A stretch of DNA of 64,000 bases from Polypterus senegalus (GCF_016835505.1 NC_053155.1:74596088-74660087); one strand, 5' to 3'; counted from the stretch's first letter, positions 13,589 to 64,000 are shown. The notes: generated by a model not told the origin, from the letters alone. Numbers and translations: made by a program.

Positions 13589-14039
13589 CTTCTCCAGTTC
13601 TTGAATAAAGGAGGAAGAACACTGTCCATTTGCCTCTGCAGCATCTTTAACAGGGCAGTCTGCCACATCTTGATTGAAGACATCAGCATCATCCCACAGG
13701 GAGAGAGGATTACCATCAAGTGAAGGTAATTTAAGTGCATCAAGGGCATTATGAAAACCAGTGCCAGAGAGTTCCGCCTCACCACATGCAGAAGAAATAT
13801 TTTTATCCATGAATGAATCCACACTAATACAGCTGCTGTTGCTGGATACAGGTAGAGGGGAAAACTGAGTAATAAAAGAGTCATTTTGGCCCTCAGGCAG
13901 CCATCCTGTTTGGTATGCATTTGTATTTAGTGGGTCAAATGGTGGGTTTAGAATTACACCAGCCCGGGAAGTGCTTGGCATCCAGCGAGCCAAAAAGTTC
14001 ATTTGAGTTTGTAGCTCCGCTGTCACCGACATTTTAATT
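13589..14039 (-). CDS. CENPJ: CENPJ/CPAP first coding exon (ATG at 14030-14032; MSVTAELQTQMNFLARWMPSTSRAGVILNPPFDPL... 148 aa)
   Basis: The ORF starts at an ATG placed 9 nt after an acceptor (tgactgcacag|). It ends at a donor GAGAAG|gtaac with 148 codons, phase 0. The N-terminal motif NFLxxWMxxxSRAGVILN matches the human CENPJ N-terminus (NFLTQWMTNPSRAGVILN). Confidence 0.7.
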
Positions 14040-17989: not shown

Positions 17990-20222
17990 GTATCGGGCGT
18001 GCTAATTGATAATGTTCTGGACATAGTAAATTCGTCATTACATACGGGGGTCTTCCCAGACTGTCTTAAGACTGCTGTAGTTAAACCCCTTCTTAAGAAA
18101 CATAATCTCGACCCCTCGGCTCTTGAAAATTTTAGACCCATCTCTAACTCGCCTTTCTTAAGTAAAGTTCTAGAGAAGGCAGTCATCACGCAGTTAAATG
18201 ACCATCTCAATAAACATGCTATTCTTGATAAATTTCATTTTGGTTTCGGAACAAATCACAGCACAGAAACGGCACTCATTAAAGTAGTAAATGATTTGCG
18301 AGTGAATGCAGACAGAGGCCATTTATCTGTTCTCATCCTCTTAGATCTGAGTGCTGCATTTGACACCATTGATCATAATATTCTTAGAAATCGCCTTAGT
18401 CAATGGGTGGGCCTCTCTGGCAGTGTCTTAAATTGGTTTGAATCCTATCTGGCAGGAAGAAAATTCTTTGTTAGTTGTGGTAATCACATCTCAAAGACAC
18501 ATGATATTCTATATGGTGTTCCACAAGGCTCTATCCTGGGTCCGCTGCTCTTCTCAATCTATATGCTTCCGTTAGGTCAGATTATCTCAGGGCACAATGT
18601 GAGTTACCACAGCTATGCTGATGACACACAGCTGTACTTATCAATAGCACCTGATGACCCCGATTCTCTTGATTCACTAACAGAATGTCTGACTAGTATC
18701 TCAGAATGGATGAATAGTAACTTTCTCAAGTTAAATAAAGAGAAAACTGAAATCTTAGTGATACAACAACAACATTTATTTATATAGCACATTTTCATAC
18801 AAAAAAAATGTAGCTCAAAGTGCTTTACAAAATGAAGAATAGAAAAATAGAAGACACAATAAAAAATAAAAATAAGTCAACATTAATTAACATAGAATAA
18901 GTAAGGTCCGATGGCCAGGGTGGACAGAAAAACAAAAAAAAACTCCAGAGGCTGGAGAAAAAAAATAAAATCTGCAGGGATTCCAGACCAAGAGACCGCC
19001 CAGTCCCCTCTGGGCATTGGCAATAATGGATACAATCAGGCTATTAGAAATAAACTGGATACATTAGGATTAAAAGTCAAGACGGAGGTAAAAAGCTTAG
19101 GGGTAATTGTTGACTGTAATCTGAATTTTAAATCGCATATTAATCAGATCACTAGGACAGCATTTTTTCACCTAAGAAACATAGCAAAAGTTAGACCTCT
19201 TATATCACTGAAAGATGCAGAGAAATTAATTCACGCGTTTATTTTCAATCGACTAGATTACTGTAATGCACTCCTCTCTGGACTACCCAAAAAAGACATA
19301 AATCATTTGCAACGAGTGCAGAATGCAGCTGCTAGAATCCTAACTAGGAAAAGAAAATCCGAACACATTTCTCCAGTTTTGATGTCACTACACTGGTTAC
19401 CTGTGTCATTCAGGATTGACTTTAAAATTTTGCTTATGGTTTATAAAGCCTTAAATAATCTTGCTCCATTTTATATATCGGAATGTCTGACACCCTGTAT
19501 TCCAAATCGTTACCTTAGATCTTCAAATGAGTGTCTCCTTACAATTCCAAAAGCTAAACTTAAAAGAAGTGGTGAGGCGGCCTTCTGCTGTTATGCACCT
19601 AAAATCTGGAATAGCCTGCCAATAGGAATTCGCCAGACTAATACAGTAGAGCACTTTAAAACACTGCTGAAAACACATTTCTTTAACATGGCCTTTTTAT
19701 AACTTCAGTTTGACTTAATCCTGATACTCTGTATGTTCAATTCATAATAACTATTCATGGTGGCTCTAAAATCCGTACTGACCCCTACTCTCTCTTCTGT
19801 TTCTTTTTCCATTTTTTTTCCTGCGCCACCACCACCTACTCAAAGCATCATGATGCTCCAACAATGATGGATGGATTAAAAGTTAGAAGTCTACGTGACC
19901 ATCATCATCAAGTCCTTCCGTGAGAACCCTAAATCCAAAGAGGACTGTTTCATTTATGTTAGGTAGAATGCCCAGAGGGGACTGGGTGGTCTCTTGGTCT
20001 GGAACCCCTACAGATTTTATTTTTTTCTCCAGCTGTCTGGAGTTTTTTTTTGTTTTTTCTGCCCACCCTGGCCATTGAACCTTACTCTAATTCTATGTTA
20101 ATTAATGTTGACTTATTTTATTTTCTTATTGTGTCTTTTATTTTTCTATTCTTTATGTAAAGCACTTTGAGCTACTGTTTGTATAAAAATGTGCTATATA
20201 AATAATTGTTGTTGTTGCATGG
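17990..20222 (+). mobile_element. L2-type LINE copy with RT domain, ORF2 C-terminus and complete 3'UTR, 5'-truncated
   Basis: The RT ORF at 17999-18787 reads FRPISNSPFLSKVLEKAV...LDLSAAFDTIDHNIL...GVPQGSILGPLLFSIYMLPLG...YADDTQLYL. The ORF at 19023-19702 reads HLRNIAKVRPLISLKDAEKLIHAFIFNRLDYCNALLSGLP...LHWLPVSFRIDFKIL...AFCCYAPKIWNSLP. The 3'UTR ends in (TTG)n at 20222. Confidence 0.85.
18771..19022 (-). mobile_element. Antisense L2 3'UTR fragment nested inside the ORF2 of the L2 at 17990-20222
   Basis: It interrupts the ORF between ...TEILVI and ...GNNGYNQAIRN. It is the reverse complement of 19960-20222, so the two form a 250-bp inverted repeat within one LINE copy. Confidence 0.6.
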
Positions 20223-21369
20223 TGGTCGAATGAAAGAGTAAAGTGTATATTGTTGAGATTTCATTGGACTTGAATTTTAAATTAAATATAAAATGTATTC
20301 ATAGGTGTGAAATGAATTTGCCAAAATGTTCAAACATCCAGTGTGACTAGGTCAATGGCTGTGTGTGTTGTGTAGCCAACTCCCACATTCAAAAGGGGAA
20401 TCATTAACTGCACATCACATGGTTTTGCATGACTCAAACACATGTCTAGTGATTTTTTTCCTTTCATTTCCCTGACATTTCATAAACACCAGTGCCAGAT
20501 ATGCCATTTAGGCAAACTAAGCCTAAAAAGGGACAGCATTTTTTTTAAATAATACAGCACATTACCTACAAAAACTCTGTCTCAATACAACTGTATGACT
20601 CCCATTAATTCTATCATATTCTTTTACATTATCGCCTCATAGTGGAGGTGTTTGGTCTTAACATATGCCTACACAAACTCTTTACAGGTGGTCTTTCATA
20701 TCCCAGAATACACTGCACTCAGTTTCACAGACATTTTCTTCAGAAGCAATTCATAATTTTACTTTAGCTTTAATAAAGTTTCAACAAGTTTGTTCTTTAT
20801 TTTATTTTCAGTTCATTTCATTTACTTCTGCTGAAGAGCTTGGGCAGCACATCTGCCATGAAATTTCTGCTTGAGAGTGACCTTGGATGATGCAAGATGA
20901 CCACATTTTGTACTGTAGCTATTCTCAATCTTGCAATGGTCCAAGGATTGCAGATTAAACTGCCACATCTGTGGCAACCTAACATTTTTAGTGTGGTTGT
21001 CCCTTGCCCAGTTTTATTCTCTCTACGTGTTTTTTATTTCTGTTTCAGCTGATGACTTTGGGTTAACCTACATATCATATATTCATTGATCATGAGCACT
21101 TGTTGATTGTATTTGCTTCATGAAGTACTGGGCTATATGCCTACAAAGATCTCACATTTTTTATTGTAAAGTGGTCTATGGTAGTTTCTTTCTTTAAAAA
21201 CATTCAAATATCATATGGTATTGCTTCACTTTTTTAAAAGTTTTAAAACTGTAAAATATGCCATTTTCTATTGTTACACTATTCCAAAGGACATAAAATA
21301 ACCGTCTAAGACAAATATTTTTTTTTGATCTGTCTAAAGTACCGAGAAGCATCCACTTGCAGAGCCACA

Positions 21370-22645
21370 GCACCATACGTCACTGCAGTTGTAGACCCGC
21401 AGTTACAGACCCGGAAGTGGCGTCACCTTCGTTTCAGGACTGACTTCATAAAATTACTTTTGGAAGGTTTCGGCCGGTCTCGGCAAAACCCGGAAAGTAA
21501 CGTCGGGTCAAGGAGCCGTTCAGAAATTAAGCGATAAAAATGAGAAGGGAAAAACAGTACACGAAAAACCAAATAATACGCATCATTGTGAAGTTCAGAG
21601 GGTTTCTGCCGTCACATCGTGCCATACTTCAAACTAAACAATACGGATCGTTTCTGTGAAATACACCATTAACATTTACATTGTGTTCGGGTCTGTGAGA
21701 ACCGTTTAACATGTCGACAAAATTAAAATCATCAAGATCTGTGTCAATTGAAAAGTTTTTCGTTTACATTCATGAAGCGAAATATACAATATAATTACAA
21801 TATTTACACCACGTTAAAGTTTAGTAAAACGTTAATAATAAAAGTTATTACGTTTTTTTAAATGTACAGTGCAATATTGTTCTAAACCAATATAGAATAA
21901 ACATTTATGCCAATCTGATATTTTTAAACATGCATGTGAAGAAAACGGCAATACACATTCTACACTGAATTATGCTATATATTAATTCAGTATAGAACTA
22001 CTCTAGTTTTTGTCACATATTACTATAAACGATGCACCATCAAAAGAAAAAAAAAGAAAAATACTAATAAGAACACAATTTATTTATATAGCACCCTTCC
22101 TATGCCCAAAACTCAGAAAGAACAACAGGACCGTTACAACATTGGCTACAAATAATATCTCACTAAATAAAGATAAATACAGGATATACAAAACATTCAA
22201 ATAGAATAAAAGACAATAATCCAGGCTAAAATACAACATATAATGCTACAAAAAAAGCTTGAACAAATAGCATAAATTGTGATAAAAATGCAAACCCTGA
22301 GTACCTGGACAGATAGAGGGGGTAAACTGAAAGAAGGGGCAGAATGTCAGGTCTGTTTAATGTCTTCCTAAACAAATTAATGGAGTCAGCTGATCTCATT
22401 CATTTTGGGAGGTCATTCCACAGTCTGGGCGCTATACAGTTGAAGGCCCTGCTGTCACCCACAGAGTACAGTTAGTGAGGGGCACAGACTGAGAGGACCT
22501 TAGTGGGAAGGTTAATAACAGAATTTGATCTTCAATCCTGTAAGACACAGAGAGCCGTGAAGGTGCAGCAGGATGGCTGTGATGTGCTCGCTGTTGTTGG
22601 TTCATGTCAGGACTCTTGCAGTTGAGTTTTTGAATCAGCTGGAGC
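21370..22645. repeat. Inverted duplication, arm A (reverse complement of 26222-27400)
   Basis: Blocks that I aligned by hand are about 92% identical. One example is gacccggaagtggcgtcaccttcgtttcaggactgacttc (21400) against rc(27340-27395). Another is the L2-tail block gaatttgatcttcaatcctgtaagacacag... (22590) against rc(26222-26340). Confidence 0.8.
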
Positions 22646-22689
22646 TGTGATATGATTATACTGTATTATTATAAAATTAAGATACTGTA

Positions 22690-23600
22690 ATTATTATATT
22701 AAAAATTAAGGCATTAAAGGTTTGCCCTAGACATGACATAAGATACATAGGGTCTTACAATGGGTCCAAGGATTTCATCCCAATACCTAATGGCAGTCAA
22801 AGTGTTGTTGTCTAGCCTGTAAAGGTCTATATGTTCCTCCATGCATATGCTTCCCCTGACCATCACTGACCCACCACCAAAAGCGGTCATGCTGAACGAT
22901 TTTACAGGCAGTATAACGTTCTCCATGGCTTCTCCAGACCCTTTCACGTCTGTCACATGTGCTCAGGGTGAACCTGCTCTCATTTGTGAAAAGCACAGGG
23001 CCCTCGCCAGTGGTGGACCTGCCAATTCTGGTATTCTTTGGCAAATGCCAATCAAGCTCCACGAGGCCCACTAGAGAATGTTGGGCCCTCAAGCCACCCT
23101 CATGAAGTCTGTTTCCTTTTGTCCAAGGTCAGAGACATTCATACCAGTGGCCTGTCTGCTGGACGTAATTTTGTAGGCTCTGGCAGTGCTCATCCTGTTC
23201 CTCCTGTACTGCTGATGGGATAAGGACCTTCTATGAGGGGCCCTGTCCAGCTCTCCTAGAGTAACTGCCTGCCTATCTCCTGGAATCTCCTCCATGCCCT
23301 TGAGACTGTGCTGGGAGACACAGCAAACCTTCTGGCAATGGCACATATTGATGTGCCATCCTGGAGAAGTTGTACTACCTGTGCCACCTCTGTAGGGTCC
23401 AGGTATCACTTCATGCTACCAGTAGTGACACTGACTGTAGCCAAATGTAAAACTAGTGAAAAAACAGATAAGGAGGGAAAAATGTCAGTGGCCTCCCTCC
23501 ACCTGTTAAACCATTCATTCCTGTTTTGGGGGTCGTCTCATTGTTACTCCTGTAGTGCACCAAAGCAGCTGAAACTGATTAACAAGCCCTTCTGCTAATT
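22690..23600 (-). mobile_element. Tc1-like transposon fragment (degenerate transposase)
   Basis: Minus-strand translations give ...GGGSVMVRG..., LTAIRYWDEILGPIVRPY and ...WRSHGERYTACKIVQHDRF... These are DDE Tc1 motifs with frameshifts. Confidence 0.6.
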
Positions 23601-23699
23601 CACTGACCTGATCAATAGCTCATAAGTTTCATTGACTTGATGCTATACTCGGCTTAAAAAGTGTTCCTTTAATTTTTTGAGCAGTATATTTTAATGTAA

Positions 23700-24730
23700 T
23701 ATTGTGGTTTTAATCAATCTCGCCCCAAGAGCCAGTTTCTGTAGCCGAGGATCAGACCGCCAAGGTCCCTGCCTCCGGCCTCCACCCAACTCACACTGCA
23801 CCTGACCTCCTTGGCCCCTCCCATAGGTGGTGAGCCCATGGGAAGGAGGACCCACGTTACCTCTTCGGGCTGTGCCCGCCGAGCCATGGGTGCAGGCCCG
23901 GCCACCAGGCGCTCGCAATCGAGCGCCACCCCCAGGCCTGGCTCCAGAGGGGGGCCCCGGTGACCCGCGTCCGGGCAAGGGAAAACGTCGTCCACAGTTT
24001 TTATTCTTCATTGGAGGTTTGTCGAACCGTTCTTTGTCTCATCCCTTACCTAGGACCAGTTTGCCTTGGGTGGCCCTATCAGGGGCATAAAGCCCCGGAC
24101 AACAAAGCTCCTAGGATCATTGGGACACGCAAACCCCTCCACCACGATAAGGTGACGGTTCAAGGAGGGGATTGAGATCGTGAGATTGACAGGCGGATCG
24201 GTGCGGGCTCTGCATCGGTCTGTCGTGGTGAAAAAAGCTGAGCCGTAAGGCAAAGCTCTCAATTTACCAGTCGATCTATGTTCCTACCCTCACCTATGGT
24301 CATGAGCTATGGATAGTGACCGAAAGAACGAGATCGCGAATACAAGCGGCTGAAATGAGTTTCCTCCGCAGGGTGTCTGGGCTTTCCCTTAAAGACAGGA
24401 TGAGAAGCTCAGTCATCCGGGAGGGGCTCAGAGTAGAGCCGCTGCTCCTCCGCATCGAGAGGAGTCAGATGAGGTGGCTCGGGCATCTGATCAGGATGCC
24501 TCCTGGACGCCTCCCTGGTGAGGTGTTCCGGGCACGTCCAACCGGGAGGAGGCCCCGGGGAAGACCCAGGACACGCTGGAGGGACTATGTCTCCTGGCTG
24601 GCCTGGGAACGCCTTGGGATTCTCCCGGAAGAGCTGGAAGAAGTGGCCGGGGAGAGGGAAGTCTGGGCCTCTCTGCTTAAGCTGCTACCCCCGCAACTCG
24701 ACCTCGGATAAGCGGAAGAGGATGGATGGA
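23700..24730 (+). mobile_element. LINE family 'a' 3' portion with internal deletion, ending in a (GGAT)n tail
   Basis: The first 260 bp are collinear with 62200-62460. The ORF at 24316-24711 reads EMSFLRRVSGLSLKDRMRSSVIREGLRVEPLLLRIERSQMRWLGHLIRMPPGRLPGEVFRARPTGRRPRGRPRTRWRDYV... The tail is ggatggatggatgg. Confidence 0.8.
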
Positions 24731-25869
24731 TGGATGGATTGTGGTTTTATAAGTCACTACATAAATTACTGAAATACACTCAATGATAGTTTTGGATAGC
24801 CTCACACTTCAGTCTTTCACAAATGCAGTAGTTTACAAACATCGTATTTTAATTTCTCTTTGAGAAGCATGAAAAATAATTGTGTTGAATCTCAACTTAT
24901 GATTACATTTTTGCTACGTGTGTACTATTGAGGGACTTTTTTTTTTAAATCAGATGGTCACTTTATTTTAACAAGCAATGTAAATAACGTGTTTACTGTT
25001 TACCCTATTTTCATTTTCTACACAATACTATACAGCTGTACAGTTCAGCTGGTTAAAACAACACAGTAAAATACACAAACACACTCACTATGCATACATA
25101 CTACAGGTGCCGTCGTTGGTTCCCCTGTGGACTCGGCTGTACCTGCTGGGGTCTTTGGCACATGTTGTCCCAGTAGCATGTGAGGTGTCAACAATGGTTT
25201 ACCCTGCTCCTTAAGAAGGCCGTGTCTCCTTCTCCCTGTTCCAGTCTCAGTTCAAGGTTGTCCAGATGACAAAAGTATTTTTTTCTAAGATGTTCAATAT
25301 GTTGAAAAAATTACCTGCGGCCAGCATCCAGCATAATGTTTTATCTAAATTCTCCACTTCTCTTTTTGTAGCATTATAGTCCATTATCATTTCTGGCCAT
25401 GGAATCTCCTATCCCTGTGCAGGTCACATTGTGCACCAAGGATGTGTCATTTGTTTAGACAAACTAATGTTTTCACTGGCCTATTCTGTGTGGCCAGCAG
25501 TTGAGATGGGAGCTCTGGCTTATTTGTCCTTATTGTACTAAGCATTGTTACCTTCCTCTTGAGGAGCTACTGTCCCAGTTTGTGTAAAAGTAAAGCTTGT
25601 TGCATATGGTGTTGTGGCCATGTGGCTTTTGTCATGTCCAGGGTAACCCTAAAGCTTTAATTTCTCACAGGAGTTCTTCCATCTGACTTCCCTTTGTTAA
25701 TGAAATGTCATCCTCTGCTCTTCTGTATCTCTGTGCTTCCCCTTTAGCAAGTTATTCATAACTTTGGAATGGGTTATATGGTTATATGGGGTTTATGCAG
25801 ATGATGCTTAGATCTGTTTTAGTGTAAAAGTGGCACACAGCTTTCTCAGCTCACAACTTACCTCAGTGA

Positions 25870-26800
25870 AATTAAATTTAAATTAAAACCTGAACAGAGC
25901 AAAACTTTTTAAAATTAAATTGCAACATAACTGATCTCCTGCAAAGTGGCACTAAAGTGCAACTTAAGAAAACAAGCTCCTCTTCAACCATTCTTGGCGA
26001 TGATCTCATCAGATCTTTTTGTGCAAAGAATCTTGATGTCACTTTGATTCCTCCTTTTCTTATTTCACCCATGTAACCCATATTAAGAAACTTCCACCTG
26101 TGTCACATTTCTTATGTTTGCTCATTGCTCTCCTTTTCTAATGCTGAGAATCTTGTCCCTGCTTTTATCACATCCAGCATTGATTATTGTAAGTCACTAC
26201 TGGCAGCAGGTGCCATTTCTAATCTTATATCACAGCTCCAGCTGATTCAAAACTCAACAGCAAGAGTCCTGACACAAACCACCATCAGTGAGCACATCAC
26301 AGCCATTCTGCTGCATCTTCACTGCTCCCTGTGTCTTACAGGATTGAATATCAAATTCTATTATTAACCTGCCCACTAAGGTCCTCTCAGTCTGTGCCCC
26401 CCACTAACTTGCACGCTGTGGGTGACAGCAGGGCCTTCAGCTGTATAGCACCCTGACAGTGGAATGACCTCCCAAAATTAATGAGATCAGGTGATTCCAT
26501 TCATTTGTTTTTAACTCATTTGTTTAGGAAGACATTACACAGACCTGACATTCTGCCCCTTCTTTCAGTTTACCCCCTTTACCTGTCCAGGTACTCAGGG
26601 TTTGCATTTTTATCAAAATTTATGTTATTTGTTCAAGATTTTTTGTAGTATTATATGTTGTATTTTATTCTAGATTATTGTCTTTTATTCTATTTGTAGC
26701 CAATGTTATAACGGTCCTGTTGTTCTTTCTGAGTTTTGAGCATAGCAAGGGTGCTATATAAATAAATAGTGTTCTTATTAGTATTTTAATTTTTTTTCTT
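25870..26800 (+). mobile_element. L2-type LINE 3' fragment (ORF2 C-terminus plus 3'UTR); its 3' part forms the inner end of inverted-duplication arm B
   Basis: Translations give ...AENLVPAFITSSIDYCKSLL...LQLIQNSTARVLT...HITAILLHLHCSL, frameshifted, and the 3'UTR ends ...gggtgctatataaataaatag. Confidence 0.7.
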
Positions 26801-27400
26801 TTGATGGTGCATCGTTTATAGTAATATCTGACAAAAACTAGAGCAGTTTTATACTGAATTAATATATAGCATAATTCAGTGTAGAATGTGTATTGCCGTT
26901 TTCTTCACATGCATGTTTAAAAATATCAGATTGGCATAAATGTTTATTCTATATTGGTTTAGAACAATATTGCACTGTACATTTTAAAACATGTAATAAC
27001 TTTTATTATTAACGTTTTACTAAACGTTAACGTGGTGTAAATATTATAATTATATTGTATATTTCGTGTCATGAATGTAAACGAAAAACATTTCAATTAA
27101 CACAGATCTTGATGATTTTAATTTTGTCGACATGTTAAATGGTTCCCACAGACCTGAACACAAGGTAAATGTTTATTGTTTAGTTTGATGGCAGAAACCC
27201 TCTGAACTTCACAATGAAGCGCATTATTTGGTTTTTCGTGTACTGTTTTTCCCTTCTCATTATTATCGCTTAATTTCTGAACGGGTCCTTGACAAGACGT
27301 TACTTTCCGGGCTTTGCCGAGACCTGCTGAAACCTTCCAAAAGTAATTTTCCGAAGTCAGTCCTGAAACGAAAGTGACGCCACTTCCGGGTCTGTAATAT
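26222..27400. repeat. Inverted duplication, arm B
   Basis: See arm A at 21370-22645. This arm combines the L2 tail with about 620 bp of non-TE sequence whose outer end carries CCGGAAGT repeats. Confidence 0.8.
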
Positions 27401-27620
27401 CTCCTGACCCCGAAGTGTTCCTAATCCCCAGTCCATGTGACTCTCAATCACTTCCGGGTCAGGTACAAGTTCTTTACTTCACCCCGGAAGCACATCATTC
27501 CTCTTGTCCACGTGTGCTTCCGGGGTGTAGGGAAAATATCCATTATTCCTCCCTGCAGCATCCCCTAGTGGCCCCCACGGCATCCAGCAGGGCTGCATAT
27601 AAAAACTACATTGTCCATGA
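27380..27620. promoter_or_regulatory. Cluster of ETS/GABP-like CCGGAAGT motifs, a 13-bp perfect palindrome around an E-box, and a TATAAAA box
   Basis: The motifs seen are cacttccgggtc (x2), ccccggaagcaca...cacgtg...tgtgcttccgggg, and gcagggctgcatataaaaac flanked by cagcagggc/gccctgctg. Any regulatory function is unproven. Confidence 0.3.
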
Positions 27621-27723
27621 TGCCCTGCTGGTCTTCTGGGGACCTCCATACTGCAAGGAGGGCTCCACCTGGCGGCTTGGGGGTATTGGCCGGGATAAAC
27701 GGCCAGCCATCCACCACAATATA

Positions 27724-29308
27724 TACCGTGCATCCGGAAAAGTATTCACAGCGCATCACTTTTTCCACATTTTATGTTACAGCCTTATTCCAGAATGGAT
27801 TAAATTCATTTTTTTCCTCAGAATTCTACACACAACACCCCATAATGACAACGTGAAAAACGTTTACTTGAGATTTTTGCAAATTTATTAAAAATAAAAA
27901 AACTGAGAAAGCACATGTATATAAGTATTCACAGCCTTTGCCATGAAGCTCAAAATTGAGCTCAGGTGCATCCTGTTTGCCCTGATCATCTTTGAGATGT
28001 TTCTGCAGCTCAATTGGAGTCCACCTGTGGTAAATTCAGTTGATTAGACATGATTTGGAAAGGCACACAGCTGTCTATATAAGGTCCCACAGTTGATAGT
28101 TCATGTGAGAGCACAAACCAAGCATTAAGTCAAAGGAATTGTTTGTAGACCTCTGAGATAGGATTGTCTCGAGGCACAAATCTGGGGAAGGTTACAGAAA
28201 AATTTCTGCTGCTTTGAAGGTCCCAATGAGCACAGTGGCCTCCATCATCCATAAGTGGAAGAAGTTCTAAACTTAGCGATCGGGGGAGAAGGGCCTTAGT
28301 CAGGGAGGTGACCAAGGACCCGATGGTCACTCTGTCAGAGCTCCAGACGTCCTCTATGGAGAGAGGAGAACCGTCCAGAAGGACAACCATCTCTGCAGCA
28401 ATCCACCAATCAGGCCTGTATGGTAGAGTGGCCAGACAGAAGCCACTCCTTAGTAAAAGGCACATGGCAGCCCGTCTGGAGTTTGCCAAAAGGCACCTGA
28501 AGGACTCTCAGACCATGAGAAACAAAATTCTCTGGTCTGATGAGACAAAGATTGAATTCTTTGGTGTGAATGCCAGGCGTCACATTTGGAGGAAACCAGG
28601 CACCGCTCATCACCAGGCCAATACCATCCCTACAGTGAAGCATGGTGGTGGCAGCATCATGCTGTGGGGATGTTTTTCAGCGGCAGGAACTGGGAGACTA
28701 GTCAGGATAAAGGGAAAGATGTCTGCAGCAATGTACAGAGATATCCTGGATGAAAACCTGCTCCAGAGCGCTCTTGACCTCAGACTGGGGCGACAGTTCA
28801 TCTTTCAGCAGGACAACGACCCTAAGCACACAGCCAAGATATCAAAGGAGTGGCTTCAGGACAACTCTGTGAATGTCCTTGAGTGGCCCAGCCAGAGCCC
28901 AAAGTTGAATCTGATTGAACATCTCTGGAGAGATCTTAAAATGGCTGTGCACCGACGTTTCCCATCCAACCTGTGCTGCAAAGAGGAATGGGCGAAACTG
29001 GCCAAGGATAGGTGTGCCAAGCTTGTGTTATCATATTCAAAAAGACTTGAGACTGCAATTGCTGCCAAAGGTGCATCAACAAAGTATTGAGCAAAGGCTG
29101 TGGATACTTATGTACATGTGATTTCTCAGTTTTTTTATTTTTAATAAATTTGCAAAAACCTCAAGTAAATTATTTTCACGTTGCCATTATGGGGTGTTAT
29201 GTGTAGAATTCTGAGTGAAAAAATTAATTGAATCCATTTTGGAATAAGGCTGTAACATAACAAAATGTGGAAAAAGTGATGCGCTGTGAATACTTTTCGG
29301 ATGCACTG
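27724..29308 (+). mobile_element. Tc1-like DNA transposon, nearly full length with about 180-bp TIRs (IR/DR type)
   Basis: The left end accgtgcatccggaaaagtattcacagcgc and the right end gcgctgtgaatacttttcggatgcactg are inverted copies. An internal 260-aa DDE transposase ORF is present. Confidence 0.9.
28308..29090 (+). CDS. Tc1 transposase, catalytic DDE part (...[11 protein letters not shown]...[14 protein letters not shown]...QQDNDPKHT...[17 protein letters not shown]...)
   Basis: The ORF is 260 aa. The N-terminal HTH part (28100-28300, ...[34 protein letters not shown]) is in another frame, so this is probably a frameshifted, non-functional copy. Confidence 0.85.
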
Positions 29309-30359
29309 TGTGTGTGTATATATATATATATATTTACTTTGCAGATCAATAAACTGTAACCATGTACAGTATACTACTGTATATTGTATTGGCCCTTGAA
29401 CTAAAGTGACTTTTCTAATTTCAAAAATTCAATGAAACTGAAGTGTAACGATTATCACTTACATTTACTATATAGTTTCTGATGTATGCAATTTATGCAG
29501 TTCTACTATCCAATGAATGAACGACGTCAGTTTTTCTAGCTATGGAGACCTTTTACAGCGTGCCAGGAGAAGCAGGGACTGTGAAGAGTGCAATCATCAA
29601 GCCACTGGTAGTGCTGAAAAATTGAGGACGGGGTTTGCAAAGTTTTTACAGCAAGCTTAAACGTAAGCTTATTTGGGAGATGGTTATACTTTGAATTTAA
29701 CCCGTCTTTTGTAGTTCATTTGAAGTCTTCAGTTGCAATCCTGTTTACTTTTACTTTGCCATGTCCGTTTCTCCTATTATACTCCAGTCTGATGATTATT
29801 ATATTATTATTTTTGCTGGATTACTATCAACATGTTGTTAGCATATCATTTTTGCCCTCCACCCCCTAATGTTTATGACAGGTCGGTGCACATTCATTTC
29901 GCTTTGTGTACATTCTGTTTGTACTATTTTGTTAATTTCTGGAATCTGTTTAGTGTCAGTCACACAACCGATGTCTGCACCACGCCTTGTAGCTTGCAGT
30001 ATGGATTTTGAACAAGCGTGATCAAATAAGGTGTAAACAAGGTATTCACTTTAAACATTTCAATTGCTTTTAACTTTATTGCCCTTTATATTGTTTTAAA
30101 GTTAATCTTTTATTGTTTTATGTTTTTCCAGAAGTAAAATCTTTATTTATTTTTGTATACGTTGTTCATAAAATGCACTGTATCGTGAAACCTGTGTAAT
30201 TTTACGTAATATTTGTGAATTAAGAGTATCGTCTCGTGCCTAGTAAAGATAAACCATGGATGTAAAATGCACTTTTCCACGGGTGGCAATATTGTTGTAG
30301 TTTATTTTTAATGTAAATTTTAAAATCAACGAAATGAAAACAAAATGTGACGTTAACGT

Positions 30360-31150
30360 TGCGTCCAGTCCACGGTTATTCCAGTGGTTCGCAGGTTCGG
30401 ACCTCGGTCTCTGAAACTCTGTGTAATGTAATGCTGGGGGTCTGAAAAAGGATGTATGGATTGGATTATGTATGCTACACCTGAACGCGAGTCACAATCT
30501 GCATTAAATGACGAGCTGCGACATTTGACTGCATTCTTCCCCGCTGTATATTCTTTAATTACTACCTTTGTTTCGTTTTGAAATGTGGTTTTGTTTTCGG
30601 ATTGTTTCCGTTCCAGCGAAGACTAAGCCTTCTCCTCCCCTTCCCGAAAACGGGCAGAGCCTAGACCCATGACGATCTCAGAGAAAGAAGTGGGAGGGGG
30701 GCGGACGGCTGGGTCCAGGAAGTACAGCCTGTGCGCGATTTGTTCGGCGGGCCTGACCTCCTCACCACTGTTGAGCGGTGTCCGTCCGCGACTGGTCCGG
30801 TAAGTGCAGGCCAGAAGGAGCCTTTAAATGGGTCTTTGGAATATCATTTGACGCTATGCAAAGCAGGGGCAAAGGTGATAAAACCTATTTTCGTACTACC
30901 GGTATTCTAGAAGGTGTACGGTTGGATACTCGGTTAGGGTGCACCCTGTATGGGATTCGTGCGTTCGTCCTTCGAAGGAACCAGCTGTCACTTACTTTGA
31001 CGAATATAATGGTCGTCCCGGGTGTGTGCGTGAGTGTTGGTTGGTGCCGATCACGTGTTAAAACACTTGGCATTCACCTACCTGTGGTACTGGGCGCTCT
31101 GTCGTATAGGACGTTATTAAACCATATGTATACAGGAACAGAACGACCCG
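30360..31150. promoter_or_regulatory. CpG island
   Basis: Local CpG density and GC content are far above the surrounding AT-rich sequence. It contains a GC box (gggaggggggcggacgg) at about 30700. Confidence 0.7.
30700..30799 (+). other. PARP4: Candidate non-coding first exon of PARP4 (5'UTR) ending at a consensus donor CCG|gtaagt
   Basis: An Sp1-like GC box is followed about 40-90 nt later by a GTAAGT donor (GT at 30800-30801) inside the CpG island. The PARP4 ATG exon at 45668 begins at an acceptor and no nearer CpG block exists. The link to PARP4 is inferred, because the implied intron is 15 kb. Confidence 0.35.
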
Positions 31151-34804: not shown

Positions 34805-35130
34805 GGCATTCTTTATGTTTAAGCAGCACCGCGCCTCTGTTGCTTTTCATATTAAATAGAGTTGGCTGGTTCCGAGCATCAACTGGATGATAACATACAT
34901 ACAAGACCGCAAAACAAGCACATTAGTGAGTCTTTATTGTTTGTTAATTTATTTTTATTTTTAAAGTTCTTTATGTTTGAGCACCACCACACCCCTGTTG
35001 CTTTTGAAATTAAATAGAGTTGGCCGGTTCCGAGCATCAACTGGATGATAACATACATACAAGACCGCAAGATAAGGACATTAGTGAGTCTTTATTGTTT
35101 TCTAATTTATTTTTATTTTTCAAGTTGTGT
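34805..35130 (+). repeat. Tandem duplication (2 x about 165 bp) with a partial third copy at 34250-34330 and an inverted fragment at 34195-34222
   Basis: The unit ...ttctttatgtttgagcaccaccacacccctgttgcttttgaaattaaatagagttggccggttccgagcatcaactggatgataacatacatacaagaccgcaa... is repeated. Confidence 0.8.
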
Positions 35131-42830: not shown

Positions 42831-43026
42831 CTACATTCCCTTCCTTGCTTCGCCATGGGATTCACATCTCCCTGCTGATAACTACAGCCTATTTATTTAA
42901 TCCATGGCTTCTCCGCTGTTTTATTGTTCATTTATTACAATTATAGTTATCGTGTATGTATTTTAGACTTACTTTACATTGTTCAGGTACCCATTTCCTT
43001 TATCGTTCCAACCGTATCCCCACTAA

Positions 43027-43513
43027 CATGTCTATCAAGGTGATCACTATCGATCAAAGAACTGTCACTTACCGAGTGGTTTCCATGCCTGGAGATGGCA
43101 CCTGCCTTTTCCATTCTCATTGTTACATATTGCACAGCCATATCAGGCTCACTCTTGATATCCGGAGGAACATTGTGTCTTATGTATTGAATGACTGGGA
43201 CAGGTTCAAGGTGTGGACTGATGACGGTACAGGAGATAATTATACTACACAGGAGCACTATAAGAGTGAAATACTTAAGCCCTTCACCTATGGTTCTGCA
43301 TGTGAGTTGATGGCTGCCACTGAATTGTTCGGTTGTCGCTTTCAAGTGTACCGAAATGGCCAAATATTTTACACCTTTCGACAACCGGCAATGCCTCTTA
43401 AACATCTTAGATTGACAGGTGACAATTTTAGTAGTGTACATTTTGATGTTTATGAATGTTTAAACTCTCAAAAGCTGGATGCGAAGTTATCGATGAAACC
43501 GGTTGTATGCTAA
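43027..43513 (+). CDS. OTU-family cysteine protease-like ORF (162 aa): MSIKVITIDQRTVTYRVVSMPGDGTCLFHS...SVHFDVYECL...
   Basis: It has the Cys box PGDGxCLFHS and the His box (S)VHFD(V) at the canonical spacing of about 120 aa. It is an uninterrupted ORF in an otherwise ORF-poor, TE-rich interval. CpG dinucleotides are retained across 42560-43200. Confidence 0.6.
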
Positions 43514-47094: not shown

Positions 47095-47290
47095 CATTCA
47101 CTTATTTGGCCAACACCTTTATCCAAGGTGGCTTGCAACATTTATGATATAATTGGTGACATTTCTTTTGTTTTTCCAATGGGAGCTCAGGCAGGTCATG
47201 TGACTGGCTCATGGTTACACAGTGTCAGTAGCAGGATTTGAACCCACAACATCTAGATTTAAAGTCAAAAGCCTTAACTTTGATACCACA
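47095..47290 (-). mobile_element. tRNA-derived SINE-like element
   Basis: The plus strand carries ggatttgaacccacaac, which is the reverse complement of a B-box gttgtgggttcaaatcc. There is a conserved block ...cttatttggccaacacctttatccaaggtggcttgcaa... No ORF is present. Confidence 0.4.
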
Positions 47291-47568
47291 CTGCCTGTGC
47301 TTTTGTGTTCAAATATTACATGTATAAGCTATTTTACAATGTGAGTGTAATCTCAAGGCACGGATCAGTGCTCGGTAACTATCTTGGCTTGAAAAATGTT
47401 CTGTAAGTCTTTTTCTTTTACTCTTTGAGCAGAAATTCACACTTAACCACTTTATGAACTGTTTTATGATTGGCTGAAGCTTCTGTTGTTCTGTAAATAA
47501 TTACAGTAGTACTTGTTTGTTTACAAGCCTTTCTTCTAATGCATCAGTATCTGTTTTTGATTATGCAG

Positions 47569-54379: not shown

Positions 54380-54660
54380 TTATTTTATGCAAAAAAGGCA
54401 ATGAAAATTAAAATCATAAAATTAAAATGCAATCTGTCTTTTTCAATTTCATTTTCAAAAGTCTACACACAAGAATGCTGCAAAAATTAAAAACAGAATG
54501 AAATAACACCATTTGCAATTTCATTTTCAAAGCCTACACGCAAGAATGCTGCAAAAATGAAAAATAAAATGGAAGAACAGCATTTGCAATTTCATTTTCG
54601 TCCGGAACAGCAATGATGCTGCAAAATAAAACTCAAACAAGCACTGGTGCCACCTGCTGC
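54380..54660. repeat. Minisatellite, about 62-bp unit x about 3.5
   Basis: The unit tttgcaatttcattttcaaagcctacacgcaagaatgctgcaaaaatgaaaaataaaatggaagaacagca repeats. It lies immediately 3' (in element sense) of the Helitron helicase remnant. Confidence 0.8.
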
Positions 54661-55001: not shown

Positions 55002-58000
55002 CTAGCCAACCCGTGGCATAGCAAACACCGCATAATTATTTATTGATGACTGAACACTTCTTGAAAGACAGTTGTCCAAATGGGGTGGGTTTGAGGATGT
55101 AACTGTGAGTGAATGAAAAGATGGAACTCTGGAGAGAGCAACATACAATTGTCTGTGACTGAAAACTGGTTTTGGCAGATACAGGCATATCTTTTTGAAA
55201 GTTTGTCCCTGTGCCTTATTAATTGTCATTGCAAATGCCAATCTAACAGGAAATTATCTGCGTGTAAAAGGCAAATTTGAATCTGATGGGGTCAGGGATA
55301 TCTGGGGAATAAGGACAGTTTGTGAGGTAGCAGCTATGATAGCCTTACACTCCAGTACATTGCGGTGAATGCTGGTAACAGAAAGTCTAGTGTCATTACA
55401 GAGACCTTTTGCTGGCAGGAGGTTTCTGAGAAGCATGATGACTGAACCAATTTTAATTTTGAGTTTATTCAGAGGCATGCCAGTGGGAGTAAGACTATTA
55501 AGAAATTCTTCGGGGAATAAAAGTTGATCTGCAGGATTGTCTGTGATGATGGAGTCAACGCTGGTGAATGTCACTTCGTCGGTAAGGATAAGTTTCAGCA
55601 CTTGTTCATTAAGGTGTAGCGAGTCTTCATTGGTGATGCTTAATATAGCTCGCGTGCTGAGTTGTTCCAGAGTGACAGTTGAGAAGTCGATGTCGCCATA
55701 TAGTTGTTGAACGGGATCAGAAATAAAAGGAAAACAATCTGAAGGCAATGTCACAGGTATTCTGTTTTTCCTGTCTCCAACATTGAGGAGCCATTTTGCG
55801 AAATGTTTTTCTTCAGGAAGAGCTCTCATATTTGTCGTAACTCTACAGCTTCGGGATCTGTCTTGTTGAGTTCAAACCATGCTAAGAGCATAGTGTTTTT
55901 GTTGGCTTGTCTTTGTGGCGCTTGTTCCTCGTGACCCTCATGAAAGAAGATGACTTGTTGTTCTGGCAAATGAACTGGTAATCATGTAATAACGTGAGAT
56001 TTTTCTGAAAGACTGTACTCGTTCAAACGCCACATAGCTCAGGAGCACTAACATACCTACCATCAAGGAAAGTCTGTATTTCGTCATGTTGGAAAACACC
56101 ATCGGCTGGCTCCATGTGAAGTGCAATGGATGCAGCGTTGTGTCCTTTGTAGACTTATATAGATACTTGATACATTGAATGGACACGCAAACTTCCACGT
56201 TAATATGACCATTGAATTTCTAAAAAAGCCAGGGATTGTAAGGAACTATCCAATGGTTGTCGATATCGTATTACCCAACAATGGCAGTTCTCCCCTGTCT
56301 TCGGCGGTATATGGGGTATCCTTGTGTGTTTTCTTGAGTCTCTGCATTGAAGTCCTTTGGGAAATTTTTGGTACACGTGCTGTCTTTCATGCAAGGTGAG
56401 TTTGCGTTGAGCATTCCACACGGACCATGTACCATGCATTTAGTGACAATTTGGAAAAGTCTGTCCGGATTTGGAAGCTCAGCGCAGACAAATTTGTCTA
56501 TATCATCCTTGGTCCTTATTTTGGATTGTGAGTCAAGTGTAAGTAACATATGGCAATGAGACAATCCTCGTTTTTGGAATTCAATGACGAAGATGTAAGC
56601 GAGAACATTGCCGAAAACATTCTTCTCTAGAATATCTGTTAGGAAATCTCGTAGTTTGATATGAAAGACGCGAGCAACGATGTCAGGTCTGTGTTCTGTT
56701 TGCCCATGATGGGAAATGGCGTTAGAGATTTCTGGCCAAGCAGGATTGCAGGTGAAGGTTAGGAATAAGTCAGGCTTGCCACACTTGCGGACAATTACCA
56801 TCGCATCTTTGTAGTTCTGTTGCATGTACCTTGGACTGCCTTGAAAGGCAGAGGGAACAATGATCAATTGTCCAGGGCGGAAGTTATGGTGTTGTGCTTT
56901 TGCAGCGATAGCATCCAGCAGTCCCCTGTATTGCTCTACCCGCAAATCTTGTTGATGGGACTGTAGGTAATTTAAACGCGCGCTTTCTGTTCTGACATAT
57001 GCGTCAACGACATATTGCTGGAAGAGTTTGCCACTGGAATGCAAGACGCTAAATGAAGATCTCATGGCAAGCCTGTAAGCATAAAATTGGAGCTGCGTGA
57101 CTCTTGTTCTTTTCTCGGTTCGCTTTTCTTCAACATGGGTCAATTGTATGTGCCAGCCTAGATCTCCGTAAGGGAATAGCAGTGGATAAACCATGGGGTC
57201 ACAGTTCATATTGAGTACAGAGATACTCTTGCAAGCATTTCCCCTTGGGTATATGCAAATGTCGCGTTGTGCAGGAGGTTCCCCGTCTTCACCTACAAAG
57301 ATAGCTGCAACAACAGTTTGACAGGATGGGGCGTTATACCTTCTCATATCTTGAGTTGGATTTTCTATGAATACCATTCGTACAGCAGCAACAGGGTTAC
57401 TGTGAGTGATAATGTCACGCATTTGCATGTAAGACTTAGCAAAGGGAATTACCTGTCGTATCATGTGGTCTAGTTGTAGCAACATTCCTTTTGCAAACAT
57501 TGAGTGGTAGCCTCAGCTGAATCGAAGATATATAGCTGACCGTATTGTGGTGACGTGTTAGGATTGGTATATAAAGGAGAGACCTGGTGATAAATTTGAC
57601 TGTGGAGTCTGAAAGCATACGGTCCGTGGCCAGATGGCTGAGCGATGTGTGCACCCATTGAAGCTAAAGCAGTGTTGTATTCCCCGATATGATCACAGTA
57701 ATTCCGTGACAGCGAGTTCTTGCTAGTCAAGAGGTTTTGTAATAAAAGAGGAGGTTGGGATAGCGGTGGCAAAGTGAGTGTGTATTTTGTGTGCACATAC
57801 CGACATTGTCAATAGATGGTACCAGAACGTCAGCAGGTGTGTTTGTGAGAGGCAAGAGAACTTCATAATGCCCATGATCCAAACAAGCGCTAAAGAGCAG
57901 GGCTATGGAGAGACGTTGGCTCTGATTGTACACTCGAGGAGAGGCATGAGGACATTCTCGGAAGTGAATGGTGATAGTAGCTGCAAGTATTTGGCACATT

Positions 58001-62199: not shown

Positions 62200-63930
62200 G
62201 GTGACATTCCACGTCCCAAGAGCCAGCTTCTGTAGACGAGGATCGGACCGCCAAGGTCCCCGCCTTCAGCCAACACCCAACTCACTCTGCACCCGACCTC
62301 CTTGGCCCCTCCCATAGGTGGTGAGCCCATGGGAAGGTGGACCCATGTTACCTCTTCGGGCTGTGCCTGGCCGAACCCCATGGGTGTCTCAGGAGGGGGA
62401 AGCAGTGCAGTGTCAACACCGTATATGGTGCTCACCTCGACTCGGGACATTGTGGGTCGGTGGGGGGAGTACTTCGGGTGGATGAGATACGCTCGGAGTT
62501 CCTTAAGGCTCTGGATGTTGTAGGACTGTCTTGGTTGACATGTCTCTACAATATCGCATGGACAGTGCCTCTGGATTAGCAGACCGGGGTGGTGGTCCCC
62601 CTCTTTAAAAAGGGGGACCGGAGGGTGTGTTCCAACTACAGAGGGATCACACTCCTCAGCCTCCCAGGGAAAGTCTGTTCGGGGGTTCTGGAGAGAAGGG
62701 TCCGTCGGATAGTCGAACCTCGGATTCAGGAGGAACAGTGTGGTTTTCGTCCTGGTCGCGGAACAGTGGACCAGCTCTACACCCTTAGCAGAATCCAGGA
62801 GGGTGCATGGGAGTTTGCCCAACCAGTCTACATGTGTTTTGTGGACTTGGAAAAGGCGTTCGACTGTGTCCCTCGGGGAATCCTGTGGGGGTGCTCCAGG
62901 AGTATGGGGTACCAGACCCCCTGATAAGGGCTGTTCGGTCCCTGTACAACCAGTGTCAGAGCTTGGTCTGCATTGCCGGCAGTAAGTCGAGCCCGTTTCC
63001 AGTGAGAGTTGGACTCCGCCAGGGCTGCCCTTTGTCACCGATTCTGTTCATAACTTTTATGGACAGAATTTCTAGACGCAGCCAGTTGAAGGGGTCTGGT
63101 TTGGTGGACTCAGGGTTGGGTCACTGCTTTTTGCAGATGATGTCCTGTTTGCTTCATCAGACCGTGATCTTCAGCTCTCTCTGGAGCGGTTCGCAGCTGA
63201 GTGTGAAGCGGCTGGGATGAGAATCAGCACCTCCAAATCCGAGACCATGGTCCTCAGCCGGAAAAGGATGGAGTGCCCTCTCAGGGTTGAGGGTGAGATC
63301 CTGCCCCAAGTGGAGTTCAAGTATCTCGGGGTCTTGTTCACGAGTGAGGGAAGAATGGACCGCGAGATTGACAGGCGGATCGGTGCGGCATCTGCAGTGA
63401 TGCGGGCTCTGCATCGGTCTGTCGTGGTGAAAAAGGAACTGAGCCGTAAGGCAAAGCTCTCAATTTACCAGTCGATCTACGTTCCTACCCTCACCTATGG
63501 TCATGAGCTATGTGTAGTGACCAAATGAACGAGATCGCGAATACAAGCGGCTGAAATGAGTTTCCTCCGCAGGGTGTGTGGGCTTTCCCTTAAAGATAGG
63601 GTGAGAAGCTCAGTCATCCCGGAGGGGCTCAGAGTAGAGCCGCTGCTCCTCCGCATTGAGAGGAGTCAGATGAGGTGGCTCGGGCATCTGATCAGGATGC
63701 CTCCTGGACGCCTCCCTGGCGAGGTGTTCCGGGCACGTCCAACCGGGAGGAGGCCCCGGGGAAGACCCAGGACACGCTGGAGGGACTATGTCTCTCGGCT
63801 GACCTGGGAACGCCTTGGGATTCTCCCGGAAGAGCTGAAAGAAGTGGCCGGGGAGAGGGAAGTCTGGGCCTCTCTGCTTAAGCTGCTACCACCGCCACCT
63901 GACCCCGGATAAACGGAAGAGGATGGATGG
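62200..63930 (+). mobile_element. LINE family 'a' copy with the RT domain and ORF2 C-terminus, 5'-truncated, ending in a (GGAT)n tail
   Basis: ORFs at 62589-62924, 62807-63220, 63217-63528 and 63556-63912 read VVPLFKKGDRRVCSNYRGITLLSLPGK...FRPGRGTVDQ...VDLEKAFDCVPRGILW...GLRQGCPLSPILFITFMDRI...RWLGHLIRMPPGRLPGEVFRARPTGRRPRGRPRTRW across three frames. The same family is at 23700-24730. Confidence 0.85.
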
Positions 63931-64000
63931 ATGAATGTGTTATGATGCAACATTTCAAAAATGACATCAGCAGTGAGCACTCATTGGTGAGTTTAATAAA

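Follow-up and report, generated by a model that had tools for sequence, protein, structure and literature searches.

An inverted duplication of a dead L2 3' end and its downstream flank in Polypterus senegalus, probably a single local segmental copy

The stretch of DNA considered here (the window) comprises 64,000 nucleotides of Polypterus senegalus (GCF_016835505.1 NC_053155.1:74596088-74660087) and contains two inverted copies, arm A on the left and arm B on the right, of a segment of about 1.2 kb, separated by a spacer of 3561 bp (22659-26219). Each arm joins the 3' end of a dead L2, a long interspersed nuclear element (LINE), to the sequence that follows it. With a probability that we put at roughly 80%, this arrangement arose as one local inverted segmental duplication of the L2 3' end together with its downstream flank, in a single event. 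A segmental copy is proposed because the arms go more than 600 bp past the canonical terminus of the LINE, share disabling changes and are without target-site duplications (TSDs).

The repeat was delimited by an ungapped repeat search over 20000-29000, a gapped self-BLAST and a global alignment of the arms. The ungapped search returned seven collinear inverted blocks of 58-402 nt with 90-95% complementarity, which gapped BLAST merges into one alignment of arm A (21403-22658) with arm B (27397-26220) over 1274 columns. An inverted match of 1.2 kb cannot be due to chance. Identity amounts to 85.6% when the gap columns of the BLAST alignment are counted, and to 94.1% over the aligned bases of the global alignment (1091/1160), in which the 69 substitutions divide into 35 transitions and 34 transversions, giving a Kimura two-parameter distance (K2P) of 0.062. 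Nine indels separate the arms: arm A has extra stretches of 17, 27 and 49 bp, arm B has one of 15 bp, and the other five are of 1-2 bp. Both kinds of change are distributed evenly: identity is 90-97% in each 100 bp, save for one tract of 135 bp without any difference. At each of the four arm ends the homology breaks off abruptly, and flanking sequence aligned locally scores no better than shuffled controls. A search for a third copy of the arm in the 64-kb window (word size 7, E<=10) gave none, short motif matches apart. An earlier reading made from the sequence alone (the sequence-only reading) had proposed an inverted duplication of about 1.2 kb with a 3.6-kb spacer, and the single collinear inverted alignment bears this out, its identity being above 80% and its length above 500 bp. 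The arm ends then given are right to within about 13 bp, apart from the start of the left arm, which was 33 bp off, and the identity of 92% then quoted falls between the two counts above.

It is highly improbable that the repeat is an artefact of assembly, whether from a chimeric fold-back read or from a haplotig joined wrongly. Long-read assemblies are known to contain false inverted duplications, but in a fold-back chimera the arms are adjacent and almost identical, and here the substitutions and indels extend over the whole arms, with 3.6 kb of unrelated transposable element (TE) sequence between them. As an origin of the duplication itself, a fold-back at the short inverted repeat across 27397/27398 (CACTTCCGGGTC, 13 nt, GACCCCGAAGTG) was considered and rejected, as the outer ends would then adjoin, which is the opposite of the layout.

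The composition of the arms can be read from the L2 tail motif GCTATATAAATAAA, found at 26753-26766 (+) in arm B and at 22079-22092 (-) in arm A. This motif occurs six times in the window against 0.05 expected, each time as the 3' end of an L2 or of an L2-tailed repeat resembling a short interspersed nuclear element (SINE). The six aligned tails agree through the canonical GTGCTATATAAATAAA and a short (GTT)n-like run; beyond this tail the four other copies diverge into unrelated flanks, whereas the two arms remain alike for 612 bp more. The end of the L2 is placed near 26785 in arm B and near 22060 in arm A, so that the tail lies 612-658 bp inside the outer arm ends, and the arms span the junction of two unrelated classes of sequence, the end of a TE and the flank of its insertion. 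This position of the tail motif leaves 612 bp in arm B and 658 bp in arm A, in agreement with the L2 tail plus about 620 bp of non-L2 sequence that had been described for each arm.

The L2 portion carries a remnant of the second open reading frame (ORF2; AFNCIAPRLWNDLPK in arm A), in which EHITAI and LPVSYRIE are separated by a -1 frameshift in both arms and some 22 amino acids are deleted after ILLLT in both, while the stop codons are private to each arm. The common frameshift and deletion show that a single L2 copy, already dead, was duplicated. The ORF2 C-terminal region was located at 26092-26516 by tblastn with L2 proteins from elsewhere in the window, and tblastn and frame translations place further L2 motifs upstream of it, namely NFLKLN at 25903-25941, PLLF..GY at 25712-25777 and a YADD box near 25790. 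The L2 of arm B is at least 1.1 kb long and continues inward from arm B only, the L2 homology of arm A being cut at 22658. A duplication breakpoint inside the LINE, as the sequence-only reading had it, is confirmed by this asymmetry. The inward continuation of the L2 from arm B stands as well, but the limit of 25870 set for it does not, since PLLF..GY and the YADD box lie beyond it.

Independent L2 insertions, or 3' transduction by a LINE, would share with the observed layout that both arms hold an L2 3' end and differ in the length of upstream L2. An origin of this kind would call for a composite unit, either an L2 read through into the following 612 nt or a chimeric non-autonomous L2 derivative, retrotransposed twice, in opposite orientations and with different 5' truncations (one at 22658, the other upstream of 25700). 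LINE copies do usually share their 3' end and differ at the 5' end, and the outer arm ends read ...TGTAA, which resembles the (TGTAA)n terminal repeat of the eel UnaL2. In this layout, however, the canonical L2 tail is internal, with 612 bp of common sequence beyond it, and the arms share private disabling mutations. Direct repeats of at least 6 bp flank neither arm A nor the L2 plus the non-L2 block (40-bp flanks), nor the whole 6-kb unit, and the outer arm ends have no poly(A) and no terminal microsatellite. The TSDs of L2 can be short or absent, and a missing TSD is weak evidence on its own. There is no other copy of the unit in 64 kb of very TE-rich sequence, and the ORFs of the arms are without protein-level relatives, which is a weak test: for the 80-aa L2 remnant ORF of arm B no homologue appeared at E<=0.001, in a search without power for other copies of a composite unit. 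L2-clade LINEs are 'stringent', meaning that their ORF2 protein must recognise the stem-loop of the 3' tail (PMC4176376), and a tail buried 612 nt inside would therefore make a poor substrate for retrotransposition. We consider this origin very unlikely. The claim of a segmental inverted duplication instead of two insertions finds support in the common junction of L2 tail and flank, in the shared frameshift and deletion and in the missing TSDs. Twin priming of one LINE RNA was rejected too, given that the arms end at the same 3' nucleotide and that no TSD surrounds the unit.

Still less likely is a single 6-kb DNA transposon or foldback-like element with terminal inverted repeats (TIRs) of 1.2 kb (TA/CAGACCC...GGGTCTG/TA), invaded later by other TEs. 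The sharp and identical outer ends, the TA beside CAG... at both of them, as in Tc1/mariner elements, and the Tc1-like remnant inside would suit such an element. However, each 'TIR' would hold a 5'-truncated L2 end that runs inward at just one of the two sides, a terminus of its own at about 23688 marks the Tc1-like remnant inside as a separate insertion, and no intact transposase is present. The TA is palindromic and falls within the TTA/TAA of the homology itself, which makes it uninformative, no longer TSD is present, and the window has no further copy.

If the repeat is a segmental duplication, the sequence also bears on which arm is the parental one. Arm B is native on its inner side, since the L2 runs on there, and it is probably parental on its outer side too. 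The outer 110 bp of the non-L2 block contain CTTCCGG(G) motifs of the ETS type, and this cluster goes on into the right flank, where an exact second copy of the 12-mer GACCCGGAAGTG is found at 27449-27460 (-), an inverted copy of it with one mismatch at 27406-27417, and a perfect 14-bp inverted repeat at 27480-27493 / 27514-27527 with CACGTG at 27509-27514. Eight occurrences of the motif were counted in the window at <=2 mismatches against 1.5 expected, and when the right flank is reverse-complemented, the first 50 nt of arm B align with it at a score of 26 (null 15.6 +/- 2.7, matched by 9 of 1000 shuffles). These similarities suggest that the right flank is a degenerate tandem unit of the arm B end, and hence that the outer junction of arm B is native.

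A variant of segmental duplication, possible although we consider it doubtful, is a staggered-break micro-inversion of about 4.8 kb, with the ancestral order left flank, arm, reverse complement of the spacer, right flank. Staggered breaks round the 1.2-kb segment and a second break elsewhere, followed by fill-in, would leave the segment at both ends in opposite orientation, and this predicts exactly the layout of a copy, a 3.6-kb segment and an inverted copy, as well as an arm B whose inner junction, and not the outer one, is native. Inversions by staggered breaks are known to leave inverted duplications of unique sequence of up to about 1.9 kb, often at one breakpoint only and about 88% identical (PMC1885836). 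The cases of Ranz et al. 2007 (PMC1885836) are similar in that ancestrally single-copy sequence stands at both ends of a segment in opposite orientation, and they match the present repeat in size, divergence and one-breakpoint origin. They flank, however, large chromosomal inversions of Drosophila and were shown with outgroups, whereas here only 3.6 kb are enclosed, the inversion is a proposal and the right flank leans against it: a micro-inversion needs a new junction between arm B and the right flank, while the exact 12-mer and the gapped similarity over about 50 nt argue that this junction is native. On the left, an imperfect tandem 14-mer (CAGTTGTAGACCCG / CAGTTACAGACCCG, 12/14) lies at 21386-21399 / 21400-21413, exactly across the homology boundary at 21403. 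It would fit an arm A that is native on its outer side, as the micro-inversion has it, but in the gapped local alignment test the left flank shows no significant similarity.

The most likely route, and the one preferred here, is a copy made by template switching or repair, which fits an arm B that is native on both sides. On this reading a 5'-truncated L2 in plus orientation, reaching at least from about 25700 to about 26785, was inserted first and had already decayed, by the frameshift and the internal ORF2 deletion, before it was copied. About 1.2 kb, comprising the last ~566 bp of the L2 and the 612 bp of CpG-undepleted host DNA downstream, was then copied once, inverted, a few kb leftward. 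We infer that this happened when a DNA break, or a replication fork that had stalled, near 21402/22659 was mended by two switches to the inverted template close by, through fork stalling and template switching (FoSTeS)/microhomology-mediated break-induced replication (MMBIR) or through synthesis-dependent repair. The 47 bp of AT-rich sequence and the one-sided truncation of the Tc1-like element at the inner junction of arm A would be scars of this repair; the 47 bp may be end-joining filler, and no template for them was found elsewhere in the window. Afterwards the copies would have diverged neutrally to 94% identity, with nine indels. Inverted insertional duplications of the FoSTeS/MMBIR type likewise consist of a short inverted local copy a few kb from its template, with non-templated or filler bases and a deletion beside one junction. 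They differ in that no clear microhomology is readable at the present junctions, the event being old (6% divergence), so that such signatures may have decayed.

Some observations weigh against this order of events. The order itself and the ancestral orientation of the spacer are proposals drawn from this one locus; the non-TE, low-copy status of the 612-bp block was judged within the 64-kb window, and a composite mobile unit is formally possible; and the 12/14 tandem copy of the first bases of arm A in the left flank would fit arm A, and not arm B, as native on the outer side. The deletion that truncated the Tc1-like element may also have removed part of the inner end of arm A at a later time, and the duplication could then have been longer at first, with a shorter spacer. 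As to age, the divergence of about 3% per arm points to an old event: at neutral rates typical of vertebrates we estimate roughly 10 million years or more, a figure uncalibrated for the species. This is comparable to the nearby TEs, as the TIRs of a Tc1 element (27725-27941 / 29091-29309) are 91% identical and the LINE paralogues 92%.

It had also been argued that a palindrome of this size is prone to form cruciforms and is fragile. The model for such behaviour is provided by fragile inverted repeats (IRs) of Alu elements, which have in common with the present repeat two long inverted copies in cis (PMC10164571). There, IR-induced recombination is about 40 times lower with a spacer of 20 bp than with one of 12 bp and decreases exponentially with divergence, and repeats that are far apart and diverged can interact only where long stretches are single-stranded (PMC10164571). 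Fragile repeats of this type have near-identical arms and a spacer of tens of bp at most (PMC10164571). The present spacer measures 3561 bp, compared with 12-20 bp in the unstable constructs, the divergence of the arms is 6% and their longest perfect tract is 135 bp, and by these measures the claim does not hold for double-stranded DNA. The repeat is accordingly unlikely to be a fragile site, while it is possible that rare homologous exchange between the arms inverts the spacer, or that a long double-stranded or hairpin RNA forms if the region is transcribed through.

The coordinates of the arms, the spacer and the right flank are collected in Table 1.

Table 1. Map of the inverted duplication, its spacer and the adjoining right flank (window coordinates)
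Feature	Position	Strand	Basis and remarks
Arm A, outer part: non-L2 block, 658 bp, including 44 bp missing from arm B	21403..22060	-	Alignment; CpG observed/expected 1.3-1.7; outer end reads TTACAGACCCGGAAGTGGCGTCAC
Arm A, inner part: dead L2 3' end (ORF2 C-terminal remnant, 3' untranslated region, canonical tail)	22061..22658	-	Tail motif, ORF2 remnant, shared frameshift and deletion
AT-rich junction, 47 bp, with two copies of a ~22-bp unit, between arm A inner end and Tc1-like element	22659..22705		Tandem Repeats Finder
Tc1/mariner-like remnant, own terminal sequence at ~23688, truncated at ~22706 before the end of the DDE domain	22706..23690	-	ORFs, pairwise BLASTP, direct reading of terminus
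Second LINE family ('LINE a'), 3' fragment with internal deletion and (GGAT)n end	23691..24740	+	89.7-92.4% identity to copy 62212-63937
Spacer stretch that may be degenerate upstream L2 reverse transcriptase	24741..~25700		tblastn; only match weak (25284-25412, E 0.08)
Arm B L2 continuation (PLLF..GY, YADD, NFLKLN, start of ORF2 C-terminal region), without counterpart beside arm A	~25701..26219	+	tblastn, frame translations
Arm B, inner part: L2 3' end, contiguous with L2 to the left	26220..26785	+	Alignment, tail motif, tblastn
Arm B, outer part: non-L2 block, 612 bp, ending ...GTGACGCCACTTCCGGGTCTGTAA	26786..27397	+	Alignment
Right flank outside the repeat, with further CTTCCGGG motifs	27398..27530	+	Motif search, shuffled alignment

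The spacer had been said to carry a Tc1 fragment and a copy of LINE 'a'. The former is weakly supported: the stitched peptide of the Tc1-like remnant matches the intact Tc1 transposase of the window (28308-29087) by pairwise BLASTP at E 2e-6, but has no Pfam match; the single ORFs of the repeat region have none either. The latter is the 3' fragment of a second LINE family listed in Table 1, and the copy at 62212-63937 to which it is similar has an RVT_1 domain.

The non-L2 block is the most CpG-undepleted stretch of the neighbourhood and has the look of a non-methylated island in spite of a G+C content of only 25-45%. In both arms its observed/expected (o/e) CpG ratio lies at 1.2-1.7, compared with 0-0.5 for the L2 beside it and 0.39 for the window as a whole. 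Seventeen CpG sites are common to the arms, ten are found in arm A only and two in arm B only. This asymmetry was discarded as a guide to the original arm, as three of the ten A-only sites fall in segments missing from arm B, and the remaining 7 versus 2 is not significant. No likeness of the block to the CpG-rich regions at 30.3-31.0 kb and 42.5 kb, to either flank or to the 24741-25700 part of the spacer rose above shuffled controls. The sequence-only reading had pointed to a 43-aa frame in the block, present in both arms, as perhaps reflecting only the age of the duplication, and this is what the differences indicate. Along the frame, of 44 codons, nine nucleotide differences amount to six amino-acid changes and one synonymous codon change; because a homologue search found no protein related to it, it is judged spurious and not coding. 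For a 70-aa ORF across the left junction a homologue search likewise gave no candidate.

The perfect tract of 135 bp, the longest in the arms, lies at 21860-21994 in arm A and at 26850-26984 in arm B. Differences elsewhere occur about every 15 bp, and the chance of a perfect tract of this length was put at roughly 0.02. A short gene conversion or sequence constraint could account for it, and it holds a small hairpin (ACTGAATTA, 9 nt, TAATTCAGT).

Judged by its composition and motifs, the block may belong to a regulatory region free of methylation. A more far-reaching proposal is that it is a germline-unmethylated promoter fragment with ETS motifs, whose two outward-facing copies stand round a TE-filled segment, or else that the arms give a 1.2-kb hairpin RNA feeding a small-RNA pathway against the L2 family; both are improbable. 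In the promoter version, one copy would face a minus-strand gene, of which a host-type spliced exon with the ATG was found at 14039-13589 (-). This exon has its ATG at 14032, the acceptor cacag/ and the donor AAG/gtaaca; a second conserved piece lies 3 kb downstream of it, at 10674-10575 (-), and the upstream region of the gene points towards arm A. The only homologue of the 167-aa exon is a 192-aa ORF on the 2-kb Logan contig SRR12532268_45262 (40% identity); this contig is neither close enough in sequence nor long enough to reach across the repeat. At the other side, the stretch 27290-27625, which straddles the right end of arm B, has ETS-type CTTCCGGG motifs in both orientations and is promoter-like, and the string ACTACATTGTCCATGATGCC at 27605-27624 resembles a ZNF143 site.

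The window as a whole, vertebrate-like and probably fish-like in type, is AT-rich (about 38% G+C) and crowded with TE remnants, including L2-type LINEs with RVT_1, a second LINE family, Tc1 and mariner-type DDE transposases and a Helitron. A nearly complete Tc1 (27725-29309) lies 327 bp to the right of arm B, with TIRs of about 217 bp that are 91% identical and a 260-aa ORF carrying HTH_Tnp_Tc3_2 and DDE_3. The Helitron remnant occupies 55254-57500 (-), with Helitron_like_N (E 2e-62) and a Pif1 2B domain. A CpG island at 30300-31000 (o/e about 1, 53% G+C), with an exon-1-like donor CCG/GTAAGTG at 30800, probably serves a plus-strand or bidirectional gene as its promoter. A separate ORF at 42956-43513 (+) has an OTU cysteine-protease domain. 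A 159-bp unit is duplicated head-to-tail at 34809-35126 with 91% identity, and a second short tandem is found at 54440-54626. At 47223-47295 (-) Rfam gives a borderline tRNA match of 30 bits (gathering score 29), which was not called by ARAGORN and is probably a tRNA-derived SINE head.

Database searches gave no matches for the region. Ten ORFs of the region and the window were looked up exactly in a collection of 15 billion proteins and none was present, and the exact outer 22-mer and internal 25-mer had 0 matches in the JGI metagenome contigs; in both cases the source species is probably outside the collection. Rfam returned nothing in the region, whether the window was searched at the gathering threshold or 21000-27800 at E<=1, and ARAGORN found nothing. 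A scan for bacterial promoters and terminators was disregarded, the sequence being of eukaryote type.

The feature is an ordinary case of a kind of rearrangement that is already known, it carries no evidence of function, and it matters little in itself, though it is a clean example of a small inverted segmental duplication dated by its K2P of 0.062. More interest would attach to it only if the CpG-undepleted block proved to be an active promoter or if the arms yielded small RNAs. Its segmental origin can be demonstrated from sequence alone, through the shared junction of TE and flank and the shared disabling mutations, and it offers a caution for TE annotation, in that the two L2 tails found here do not amount to independent insertions. 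In the lineage from which the sequence comes, the duplication could mark structural evolution or a micro-inversion.

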